From a virus (taxonomy: Duplodnaviria; Heunggongvirae; Uroviricota; Caudoviricetes): a DNA stretch of 9,856 nt. The stretch spans positions 1 to 9,856 of IMG/VR virus record IMGVR_UViG_2698536570_000006; one strand, 5' to 3'. The notes under the pieces are model-generated. The model made no database searches, was not told the DNA's origin, and was given only the letters and a program-made list of their open reading frames with translations. The position numbers and the translations under genes are program-made. How positions within the stretch are numbered: position 1 is the first letter of the stretch; each line of letters opens with the position of its first letter. Of this stretch, positions 6,938-9,856 are shown piece after piece.

Positions 6938-7720
6938 TTAGGCGCAATACAAAGGATCATTAGCAGCTCTAATACCGCCCTGAATCGCAAGCCCTGTATG
7001 GCAATTTGACATTGAGCATGATTGCCATCTGTGCAAGGGACCTCCATTAATCGAAACTTCCAGCAGATCTTTATCTCCTTTCATCCTGACCCCTTCATAC
7101 AACATATCAAGACGCTCAACAATCAATCCTGTTGGAGGTTCCATTTTTAGAACGAGGGCAAACTCTCCTGGCCCACGTCGTATTGTTATACGCGGGCCGG
7201 TACACTCCATATCCCAATTGTCTGATTTAGCTTTCCATTCATTTTCATCTATCAGTAAAGTCTCCTTACCAATAGAATTACAGAAAATTCCTGATAAAAG
7301 CATCGGTCCATGTGGTATGGGTGAAGGTTTCACAGAAAGAATGGGTTGTTCGTTGACTACAATCAAATTTTGACAGTTATGAAACGTCACTCCTGCAAAT
7401 TTTACTGTTATAGGCTCATTATGAAAATCAAACATTTCATTTGCAAAACCAGCCTGTAAGCACTTGGGATTTCTGTCAGCTATTTCCACTGTCTGTGCTG
7501 AAAGTCTACCACGAGCTCTTTTTTGATTGCATTGGGAGCAAAGAAGTGTCATTCCATTCGGATCATGTATTTTGGCATCAACGAAGTCAGGTTTAAAATG
7601 CTCATAATCATAAAATCCAAATCCACAAATTACACAGCCAAAGCCGCACCTTTGCCTTATCTGACGTTTTATTGTCTCAGGTATTCTTCTTGAGAGCCCG
7701 TGTTTATTAATATTGTCCAT
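6938..7720 (-). CDS. Uncharacterised 260-aa protein with an N-terminal HNH-type (zinc-finger) nuclease motif and an about 190-aa C-terminal domain of unknown function
   Basis: Residues about 25-68 read CGFGCVICGFGFYDYEHFKPDFVDAKIHDPNGMTLLCSQCNQKRA, fitting the HNH pattern CxxC...(D/E)H...P...N..LLC..C(N/H)..K. I recognise no family for the remainder. AT-rich coding sequence, weak RBS, ATG at 7720. Confidence 0.7.
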   Translation of the reverse strand: MDNINKHGLSRRIPETIKRQIRQRCGFGCVICGFGFYDYEHFKPDFVDAKIHDPNGMTLLCSQCNQKRARGRLSAQTVEIADRNPKCLQAGFANEMFDFHNEPITVKFAGVTFHNCQNLIVVNEQPILSVKPSPIPHGPMLLSGIFCNSIGKETLLIDENEWKAKSDNWDMECTGPRITIRRGPGEFALVLKMEPPTGLIVERLDMLYEGVRMKGDKDLLEVSINGGPLHRWQSCSMSNCHTGLAIQGGIRAANDPLYCA

Positions 7721-7734
7721 ATGGTTAGTACGCT

Positions 7735-7776
7735 ATAAGTTTGTTTCTATAATTTTACCACAATAGATAAGTTTGT
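7735..7776. repeat. Two exact copies of ATAAGTTTGT (7735-7744 and 7767-7776) spaced 32 bp apart, immediately upstream of the HNH gene start
   Basis: Seen directly in the 5' leader or promoter region of the HNH gene. Spacing of about three helical turns suggests a paired operator or iteron, but this is inference. Confidence 0.5.
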
Positions 7777-7850
7777 ATCAGAAATCGCTATATGGAGTGA
7801 GCGGAATATTTATATTATTCATACAATTGCTCTCCCGTACGCAGCCCGCA

Positions 7851-7876
7851 CTTCCGTCATCGCAGAATGACGGAAG
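7851..7876. repeat. Perfect 10-bp inverted repeat CTTCCGTCAT-cgcaga-ATGACGGAAG between the 107-aa ORF and the HNH gene
   Basis: Seen directly; 19 bp downstream of the 107-aa ORF stop (7895) on the minus strand. No U-tract. Candidate transcript-end structure or regulator-binding palindrome. Confidence 0.6.
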
Positions 7877-7894
7877 CCTTACTAACTAGCGCCT

Positions 7895-8218
7895 TTATTG
7901 AAACAGATTCTGAGGTAAATGCGGCAATACTCGACTCCACTTATCATCCTGCCACGGCTGAAGTTTTACATGTGCCGTTTCTCGGGCGAGGATTGCTCGC
8001 GCTCTGTTGAGTATCTGGGGATATTCTTGCTCGATGGAAGTGAAGTGACCAGCCTCACCATGCTCCGCATCCTGAAGAAGATGAGTAACGTTCTGGTAGG
8101 CAATTAACATCACATTCCCTGCTCGCCATAACCAGGCGAGTGTGCAAAGTTCGTTATCAGTGAATTGTTTTGTGATTGGGAATTGTTGAACTGCTAGAAC
8201 GAGAACGCCAGCATCCAT
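7895..8218 (-). CDS. Hypothetical protein, 107 aa, no recognisable family
   Basis: ORF MDAGVLVLAVQQFPITKQFTDNELCTLAWLWRAGNVMLIAYQNVTHLLQDAEHGEAGHF... with GGGA 6 nt upstream of ATG at 8218. Same strand as its neighbours and protein-like composition, but the coding status is unproven; an antisense 62-aa ORF also exists. Confidence 0.4.
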   Translation of the reverse strand: MDAGVLVLAVQQFPITKQFTDNELCTLAWLWRAGNVMLIAYQNVTHLLQDAEHGEAGHFTSIEQEYPQILNRARAILARETAHVKLQPWQDDKWSRVLPHLPQNLFQ

Positions 8219-8329
8219 TGGCAGTCCCTATAGTAAAACCATAGCTCAGGACGCTTCGTTCAGGATAGATACTTTTATTGTACTTACCTAACTTTCTTAC
8301 TATAGCACGGTTGAAAAAGTGATTATTAC

Positions 8330-9856
8330 TCAAAAATAAACCTCACCATCAACCATATATTTGAGAGTACTTATCGCCTGCTGGGCGGATATTGTTTTCA
8401 TTAAAGGATAGTGTTTAAAAACAATGCCATTCATAAAATAGATATCACAGGTTTTATTATCTGTATTGATTATGATTTTTTCGAATGTTTTATAGGCAAG
8501 TGTACGACATAGCTCTCGCCCATTTTTACTGGTTAAGTCAATAGCATGAAAATCACCAAGTGAACTCACCGCTTTACTCTTCAAAGTTTTTAATGATACC
8601 GAAGCCCTTCGTAATTCCTTATCTAATACTCTGATTTTTTCTGCTATAGCGGTAACTTCAGGCGCGACAGACAATGCAACGATTAAATTATTAATTTTCA
8701 TCTGAAGCTCAATAATTTTTAACTCTAAAGTTTCATTAGCATCTTTCTTGTTTTCAACTGGTTGAATTTTGCCACAATTAAAAAGCAATTCATTAATGAT
8801 ATTATAATCAACCAAATCTCTTTTTATTGATGGCCTGTCACATCGATGTAATCTTCTCATCGGACAAACATAATAGCCATGCAAACTTCCAGATACCGCA
8901 TGAACAATCATGGTATTACCACAAGCCTCACACTTCATAACTGTTCGAAGTAGATTTATTAGCATAGGATTCTTGCTACTATTGCTAATACCAAAAGGTG
9001 CCAACCGAATTTCCTGTACAGCGTAAAACAAATCATCTGATATGACTCTGGGATAATAGCCAGCGATTTCACTTATCCCTTTCCCTCTTGCACGATATGA
9101 AGGTACGCATATACCTATCAGAGCTTTATTCGCTAATAATTTTTCAATTACAGAAGGCCCCCATGCACTTTCTTTTCCTGAGAAATTCTTTACAGCATGA
9201 TCATTTAAATACTTGGCTATTGCATTCAATGAGCGCCTTTCCATCCTGAGTTTAAAAATTAGCTCAATAGTTTTCACCCTGTCGGGGTCTGGAACAAAGG
9301 CCGTTCTTTTGTCATCTAAGGAGAGCCATCTCGGACAAGACGCCGTCATAATCGTACCTGATTCCAGTGCATCCTGCCGTTTTTTCTTCCATGATAATTT
9401 AACCCGACTTGACTTTATCTCGCTTTCTTCATTTGCCCTTTGTGCTATAAGTATGGCTTTTATTAATGAATATGGCTCATTCAAAGAGTCAATATTATAG
9501 ACTGTATTGTCGCAAAGAGTTATAACATCAATACCGTGATTCAAAATCAATTTCAGACGTTCAATCGCTTCACCGACTTTTTCTCTTGAAAGTCTGTCCA
9601 GACTTTCAACTAACAATGTAGTTCCTGGCAATATATAACCATGCTCTATAGCATCTAAAAATTCCGAAAAAGCTCCTGATTGTGCATGCTTTCCTTTGAA
9701 TGCACTTAATCCTAAATCTTCATATGTTATGGTATCAAGATAATAATCACTATTTACCTTTAACCATTCAGCAATAAGTCTTCTCTGTCGGTTTAATGAG
9801 TCGCCAGACATCTGACCTGGTGATGAAAATCGCATATATGCTATGGCTTTTTTCAT
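8330..9856 (-). CDS. ybcK: Large serine recombinase (YbcK-like): resolvase-type catalytic domain, recombinase domain, Cys-rich zinc-ribbon-like segment and predicted C-terminal coiled coil; 508 aa
   Basis: N-terminal AIAYMRFSSPGQ...SLNRQ...TLLVESLDRLSR fits the serine-recombinase catalytic motifs (YxRVS..Q, SLxRQ, DRLxR). CEACGNTMIV...YYVCPMRRLHRCD is a candidate zinc ribbon; the C-terminal region is Leu/Ile/Lys/Glu-rich. The ATG sits exactly at the window end (9856), so the promoter and anything upstream are not visible. About 35% GC. Confidence 0.85.
   Translation of the reverse strand: MKKAIAYMRFSSPGQMSGDSLNRQRRLIAEWLKVNSDYYLDTITYEDLGLSAFKGKHAQSGAFSEFLDAIEHGYILPGTTLLVESLDRLSREKVGEAIERLKLILNHGIDVITLCDNTVYNIDSLNEPYSLIKAILIAQRANEESEIKSSRVKLSWKKKRQDALESGTIMTASCPRWLSLDDKRTAFVPDPDRVKTIELIFKLRMERRSLNAIAKYLNDHAVKNFSGKESAWGPSVIEKLLANKALIGICVPSYRARGKGISEIAGYYPRVISDDLFYAVQEIRLAPFGISNSSKNPMLINLLRTVMKCEACGNTMIVHAVSGSLHGYYVCPMRRLHRCDRPSIKRDLVDYNIINELLFNCGKIQPVENKKDANETLELKIIELQMKINNLIVALSVAPEVTAIAEKIRVLDKELRRASVSLKTLKSKAVSSLGDFHAIDLTSKNGRELCRTLAYKTFEKIIINTDNKTCDIYFMNGIVFKHYPLMKTISAQQAISTLKYMVDGEVYF

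Follow-up and report, generated by a model that had tools for sequence, protein, structure and literature searches.

A short open reading frame next to ybcK in a DLP12-like Escherichia coli prophage is almost certainly a 5′-truncated Bro-N/P22AR-C antirepressor-type gene

A 107-amino-acid (aa) open reading frame (ORF) adjoining the serine recombinase gene ybcK of a DLP12-like lambdoid prophage is, on sequence grounds, almost certainly a 5′-truncated remnant of an antirepressor-type gene that encodes a Bro-N domain followed by a P22 antirepressor C-terminal (P22AR-C) domain. The ORF lies at positions 7,895 to 8,218, on the minus strand, of the window, by which we mean the whole 9,856-nucleotide stretch of the viral record IMGVR_UViG_2698536570_000006 that was analyzed here. 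An earlier sequence-only reading had presented it as an orphan without any recognizable family or motif, and had suggested that it might be a regulator, antitoxin, or partner of an adjacent HNH protein, or else a decayed gene fragment. Among these options only the last holds, the ORF being the 3′ half of a Bro-N + P22AR-C gene. The same reading had named clear homology to a larger known gene as the observation incompatible with its proposal, and precisely this homology emerged from the Pfam, alignment, and domain evidence. We consider the remnant probably nonfunctional or dispensable.

RESULTS

The 107-aa protein belongs to a catalogued family

The ORF starts with an ATG (8,216 to 8,218), ends with a TAA stop codon, and has an open frame. 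As the sequence-only reading stated and the ORF list bears out, it is oriented like both of its neighbors, namely ybcK (8,330 to 9,856, minus strand), identified as a large serine recombinase gene by its Pfam Resolvase, Recombinase, and Zn_ribbon_recom domains and by its RefSeq context, and a gene for a 260-aa protein (6,938 to 7,720, minus strand).

The sensitive homology search that had been recommended places the protein in two known families. Pfam PF10548 (P22_AR_C) matches with 52.4 bits (E = 5.8e-14), above the gathering score of 22.4 bits, and the match joins residues 15 to 85 of the ORF to profile positions 3 to 73 of 73. The P22AR domain was reportedly defined by Iyer, Koonin, and Aravind in 2002, an attribution for which PMC9043618 and PMC10111431 provide citations. 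The complete domain, which Pfam, AlphaFold2, and BFVD all support, is encoded at 7,964 to 8,176 on the minus strand. The phrog_7640 profile matches end to end (residues 1 to 107 against profile positions 1 to 107 of 107; E = 5.8e-71), and the longer PHROG profiles matching the ORF are all annotated as “anti-repressor Ant.” A search of NCBIfam returned nothing useful, the best match having an E value of 0.063. RefSeq labels the identical DNA “P22AR C-terminal domain-containing protein” (WP_016243516.1), and in the RefSeq genomes that carry it the ORF adjoins ybcK, inside a lambdoid prophage of the DLP12 type. RefSeq, Pfam, and PHROGs all list the protein already; the finding is ordinary, and the ORF is no orphan. 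The phrog_7640 family, whose function is listed as unknown, is the truncated form itself and shows no difference from the ORF; the form was thus catalogued earlier, without mention of a truncation.

The suggested structure prediction was also carried out. The AlphaFold2 model of the 107-aa protein has a mean pLDDT of 82, with a core above 90, and consists of a helical hairpin (helices 21 to 50 and 56 to 80) preceded by 20 new N-terminal residues that are predicted to be disordered. Its top match in BFVD is the model of a 135-aa “P22 antirepressor C-terminal domain” (probability 1.0, TM 0.71). Foldseek comparison with the PDB gave no meaningful match, only generic helical hairpins with a best E value of 2.4, and a PDB sequence search with a 202-aa relative found nothing below E = 0.5, which indicates that the P22_AR_C domain has no solved structure.

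Dozens of giant proteins (700 to 3,400 aa; P0037, P0038, P0048, P0050, P0062, P0063, and others) also match the ORF. These matches cover approximately residues 12 to 51, the first helix of the hairpin, occur in 3 to 11 repeated stretches per protein with E values down to 3e-17, and could reflect either a repeat family with the same helix motif or a compositional or coiled-coil bias.

Full-length relatives occupy the same prophage slot

Elsewhere, in further E. coli prophages as well as in isolated lambdoid phages, the position of the ORF, flanked by the replication genes (P, ren) on one side and the nin genes (from ybcN on) on the other, is taken up by genes for proteins of 202 to 234 aa, and ybcK is missing. 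The products of these genes carry an N-terminal Bro-N domain (E = 1e-9 to 1e-13) and a C-terminal P22_AR_C domain, an architecture with 4,668 relatives that is found in E. coli, Klebsiella, and Raoultella. When 1.8 billion cluster representatives were searched exhaustively, the relatives proved to be mostly 186 to 307 aa long, with the match to the ORF at their C-terminus, and the distant ones included a few short stand-alone P22AR-C proteins of 86 to 135 aa.

The closest known systems are the full-length proteins themselves (WP_000211451.1, 202 aa; WP_039022782.1, 234 aa; phrog_245, “anti-repressor Ant”). Those of E. coli and Klebsiella are 78 to 86% identical in amino acid sequence to the ORF over the C-terminal ~100 residues, and their genes share with it the prophage position (P/ren to ybcN), the 3′ untranslated region (UTR), and, through recombination, variants of the C-terminal tail. 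Unlike these proteins, the ORF lacks the whole Bro-N domain (~95 residues) and the arc/mnt-type upstream regulators; unlike their genes, it has its first four codons out of the ancestral frame and has lineage-specific substitutions that look neutral (see below). Measured against the features of the Bro network, the ORF has the C-terminal P22AR-C domain and lies in the lambdoid early region between the replication and nin genes, but it gives no Pfam hit to Bro-N, of which only a diverged trace of the last helix is left.

Two Arc-family genes flank one of the full-length copies, and their divergent arrangement resembles the mnt/arc/ant layout of the immI module of phage P22, a context that supports an antirepressor-type role of the intact gene. 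A functional antirepressor of the P22 Ant kind would bind and inactivate a phage immunity repressor and would be under the control of dedicated regulators (arc/mnt or LexA). Upstream of the 107-aa ORF in the window there are no arc/mnt-type genes, and ybcK is found there instead. P22 Ant, the namesake of PF10548, shares the C-terminal domain family with the ORF by profile match. The link is remote: tblastn of 50,697 phage records yielded no phage of the P22 type, and among the annotated Ant proteins that it did find, the one of Aaphi23 was the most distant, at 30% identity. P22 Ant is a larger multidomain protein, and repressor binding in the E. coli subfamily is putative.

The naming of Bro-network proteins is inconsistent between phage records, the full-length gene being called “Rha protein” or “hypothetical protein” depending on the record (PhiR26_1, L092 2204-2812; L090; others).

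Both breakpoints of the truncation can be located

The ORF is homologous to part of a longer, widespread gene, and the limits of this homology were defined by DNA alignment and by a 15-nucleotide (nt) identity profile against the full-length genes. Identity is 15/15 per block from ~8,180 downstream, drops to 9 to 13 of 15 between 8,195 and 8,225 (9 to 11 of 15 at 8,210 to 8,225), fades at ~8,225 to 8,235, about 15 nt upstream of the ATG, and is at background level beyond ~8,235. According to the alignment and the profile, this 5′ junction zone (8,185 to 8,235, minus strand) is a diverged remnant of the last Bro-N helix (...RRWVLDILDRE...). The ancestral end of Bro-N reads CGC TGG GTT CTG GAT ATT CTC GAT CGA GAA GTT CAA CAA (R W V L D I L D R E V Q Q), and its counterpart in the window reads CCA ATG GAT GCT GG-C GTT CTC GTT CTA GCA GTT CAA CAA. 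The ATG straddles two ancestral codons, and codons 1 to 4 are read in a different frame from the ancestral one, which is restored after codon 4 by a 1-nt deletion between 8,208 and 8,207. A derivation from the last part of the Bro-N coding sequence can be recognized in the first 12 codons of the ORF and in the ~15 nt that precede its ATG. The start codon itself was probably gained after the truncation, since the Ecol_745 allele has the same junction and the same deletion but a CTG where the window has the ATG.

P22_AR_C is listed among the domain-swapping domains of the Bro network (PMC10111431), and domain shuffling of this kind might also have run the other way, so that the short form would be original and the long Bro-N + P22AR-C genes would have arisen from it by fusion. 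We give this order of events almost no credence and rejected it on the junction anatomy, in which the start of the ORF is derived from Bro-N, begins out of frame, and returns to the frame only through the deletion. Moreover, the long form is widespread in the three genera named above, whereas the short form occurs only with one particular ybcK junction, in E. coli phages.

On the 3′ side, homology to the full-length locus extends past the stop codon, includes a 10-bp hairpin (7,852 to 7,877), and ends at ~7,845 to 7,850, a point that falls inside the hairpin + T-run terminator of strain EC6868; past ~7,845 the AT-rich module with the 260-aa gene starts. The alignment of this junction and the sequence identify 7,845 to 7,894 (minus strand) as a remnant of the ancestral 3′ UTR. 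A terminator scan left the hairpin of the window unscored because it lacks a T-run. On the 5′ side, the segment from 8,236 to 8,329 (minus strand) is the 3′ flank of the ybcK module and is unrelated to the ancestral antirepressor gene; the identity profile shows background-level identity to full-length loci, and the segment, in which the promoter scan found no site, is common to genomes that have ybcK only. The ybcK junction does not vary: in 54 of 54 alleles the 60 nt preceding the ATG are nearly identical.

Base composition is in keeping with these limits. The GC content of the ORF (0.472) differs from that of both AT-rich neighbors (ybcK, 0.361; 260-aa gene, 0.406), as the sequence-only reading had pointed out. 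The separate origin that it read into this contrast is right in substance but reversed in direction: the ORF has the GC content of the phage backbone (0.50 for ybcN and 0.52 for ybcO-rusA), and the AT-rich neighbors are the imported modules. The contrast arises because the ORF sits in an island of ~390 bp of phage-backbone DNA between two such modules.

From these observations, we propose that the AT-rich emrE-ylcJ-ybcK module replaced the 5′ half and the upstream regulatory region of a Bro-N + P22AR-C gene and left ~390 bp of phage-backbone DNA (~7,845 to 8,232) behind. At the junction, a point change (C-TGG to A-TGG) and the 1-nt deletion common to all junction-bearing lineages would then have produced a frame that begins with ATG and runs through the intact C-terminal domain, which would be the reason why gene callers annotate a 107-aa protein.

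Two viable phages, Turner (L090 1274-3389) and 4A7 (L091 775-2889), carry an emrE/qacE-type SMR efflux gene together with ybcK between ren and nin, from which it follows that the emrE-ybcK module of the cryptic K-12 prophage DLP12 circulates in active phages. The window matches E. coli AW1.7 with 100% identity. The prophage to which it belongs is defective and has lost its structural genes, because a fragment of the tail-tip gene J (~1 to 1,069), which matches gpJ in two pieces, is fused near the bor/lysis region that it adjoins. Positions 1 to 1,450 form a GC-rich (55 to 65%) stretch without a complete ORF, and the 100% match over the whole stretch occurs only in E. coli AW1.7 records.

The downstream gene is variable cargo

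The sequence-only reading had cast the ORF as a possible regulator, antitoxin, or partner of the neighboring HNH protein, given that the two genes are adjacent and on the same strand. The 260-aa gene is, according to the ORF list, Pfam, PHROGs, and a promoter scan, an AT-rich cargo gene of phrog_6544, a family of unknown function, and its HNH label is itself weakly supported, since the N-terminal match is below threshold in Pfam (HNH, E = 0.043) and reaches E = 6e-4 with phrog_7785. The two genes are separated by a 174-nt spacer that contains the hairpin, and the 260-aa gene has a promoter-like site of its own (7,781 to 7,752). A PADLOC search of the 107-aa ORF, the 260-aa gene, and ybcK gave no hits. 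Above all, the pairing is not conserved: the short ORF stays with ybcK, but what follows on its 3′ side changes from strain to strain. In the window it is the 260-aa gene; in other strains it is a gene for 118, 168, or 309 aa or different sequence. At least five such contexts were distinguished, and some of them also follow full-length alleles. On account of these variable neighbors we rejected a toxin-antitoxin or partner relationship, which we regard as very improbable.

Between ybcN and the antirepressor gene or its remnant, a slot (6,938 to 7,894 in the window; also L002-L009 and L090-L092) carries AT-rich cargo that differs in each strain: the 260-aa gene in the window and, elsewhere, a HEPN-domain pair, hypothetical proteins of 118, 168, and 309 aa, and an esterase. 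In some strains PD-lambda-1/DUF4041 is located directly upstream of the slot, and the slot has the appearance of a moron or defense hotspot.

Lineage-specific changes in the short form look neutral

Comparison of 89 loci yielded 54 junction-bearing alleles (13 distinct coding sequences) and 34 full-length alleles (14 distinct). The 54 junction-bearing alleles encode 99 to 109 aa, all begin with MDAGV at the same ATG, and all have an open frame. They are mosaics whose C-terminal tails are shared with different full-length alleles, so that recombination imports diversity already filtered by selection. Over the 87 shared codons, the full-length alleles gave a pN/pS of 0.10 and the short alleles one of 0.39; in comparisons of one class with the other it was 0.22. 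Pairwise dN/dS is not decisive for recombinant mosaics, and lineage-specific changes were counted for this reason. Codon states found only in truncated alleles comprised 18 nonsynonymous and 6 synonymous changes (omega ~0.82), which is no different from the neutral expectation of 3.66:1 (binomial p = 0.62), and those found only in full-length alleles comprised 6 nonsynonymous and 24 synonymous changes (omega ~0.07). The two classes differ (Fisher p = 8e-5), in a test for which no more than 24 lineage-specific changes were available and full-length alleles were incompletely sampled. Selection thus appears relaxed relative to intact copies, as expected of a remnant, in a small sample that recombination confounds, and we infer that the fragment is no longer under meaningful selection.

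The allele of the window has two radical changes, P46H and R102P, at strongly conserved positions; Pro is found at the first in 35 of 40 family members and Arg at the second in 38 of 40, and the residues of the window occur at these positions in none of them. Conserved columns are otherwise largely intact (37 of 41). The reading frame of the ORF in the window is not disrupted, and disruptions are confined to relatives. Approximately 4.7% of point changes create stop codons, and with ~24 changes neutrality predicts 0 to 1 nonsense events; the open frame is therefore weak evidence of constraint.

The fragment is frequently decayed or lost

The junction and the ORF are present in 343 of 5,426 complete E. 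coli genomes, full-length alleles in complete genomes number roughly 350, and genomes with both a short and a full-length copy are few (median of one place per genome). One short lineage has a TAT-to-TAA nonsense allele that costs it 8 residues. Decayed stubs, which are unannotated and have indels and a deleted 3′ half, make up ~13% of the sampled hits; that of Ecol_745 also has the CTG start. Many ybcK prophages lack the fragment altogether. Viable isolated phages display three states, with an intact short ORF in Turner, only a stub in 4A7 and seven relatives, and the full-length gene in PhiR26_1.

Signals for expression were sought in the window. A Shine-Dalgarno (SD)-like AGGGA at 8,225 to 8,229, 6 nt before the ATG, accounts for the ribosome-binding site that had been called acceptable; it is present as described, but it is weak and reads AGAGA in 13 of the 54 junction-bearing alleles. 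The promoter scan detected no promoter-like site in the interval between ybcK and the 107-aa ORF, and an Rfam search of the whole window found no family. The start codon lies within a weak 5-bp hairpin with a T-rich run behind it (8,206 to 8,223, minus strand); this element matches a terminator-like consensus and could occlude the ATG, but the match is probably due to chance.

DISCUSSION

The homology to the full-length genes covers the 107-aa ORF from its out-of-frame start to the hairpin behind its stop codon, both breakpoints adjoin imported modules, and the gene downstream changes from strain to strain. The fragment may at most be read through from upstream early transcription, and it would have no required function; its product, if translated, is modeled as a helical-hairpin domain deprived of Bro-N.

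Several observations count against a mere remnant and speak for a second possibility, namely that the fragment, having gained its own start codon, was retained or repurposed as a functional stand-alone P22AR-C protein. For instance, the hairpin module might titrate the full-length Bro-N/P22AR-C proteins that superinfecting or co-resident phages produce, or the target of these proteins, or might interfere with either in a dominant manner. The ATG that probably arose after the truncation is shared by 54 of 54 sampled junction alleles, the frame is open in viable Turner phage and across the 343 genomes, the domain is complete and retains most of its conserved columns and a confidently predicted fold, and pN/pS among short alleles is below 1, a value to which the diversity imported by recombination contributes much. 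Short stand-alone P22AR-C proteins also occur among the distant relatives. Furthermore, AriS of Listeria phage phi10403S and Gp07 of phi11 are Bro-network proteins whose C-terminal domain acts alone (PMC9043618). Like the full-length genes considered here, they combine a swappable N-terminal domain of DNA-binding type (AntA/B, Bro-N, pRha) with a C-terminal effector domain (PMC9043618); in contrast to the P22_AR_C domain of the ORF, their C-terminal domain is ANT/KilAC (PF03374), and its stand-alone activity was observed with engineered constructs, not natural truncations.

A retained function is nonetheless doubtful in our judgment. The lineage-specific changes have a neutral ratio, the window allele has radical replacements at conserved positions, no promoter of its own precedes the ORF, and the SD sequence varies. 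The nonsense allele, the decayed stubs, and the frequent complete loss, which extends to viable phages, point in the same direction, and an interfering role is further weakened by the small number of genomes in which short and full-length copies meet. Nonfunctionality or dispensability of the remnant thus remains the more probable reading.

More specifically, a domesticated P22AR-C hairpin might be a dominant-negative decoy, an “anti-antirepressor” directed against full-length Bro-N/P22AR-C antirepressor-type proteins, an idea that we consider improbable. If it were true, prophages carrying ybcK would be protected from cross-induction by invading or co-resident phages, and the ORF would be a natural example of an antirepressor-derived decoy.

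As a truncated antirepressor-type gene, the ORF is of little importance in itself, and its recognition removes a false “orphan gene” lead. The RefSeq coding-sequence label borne by 343 complete E. coli genomes hides the truncation, and the entry would be better flagged as a remnant. In a wider sense, the ORF illustrates how modules exchanged where ren meets the nin region in lambdoid phages, a hotspot of cargo and defense genes, leave in-frame fragments behind that pass for small genes.
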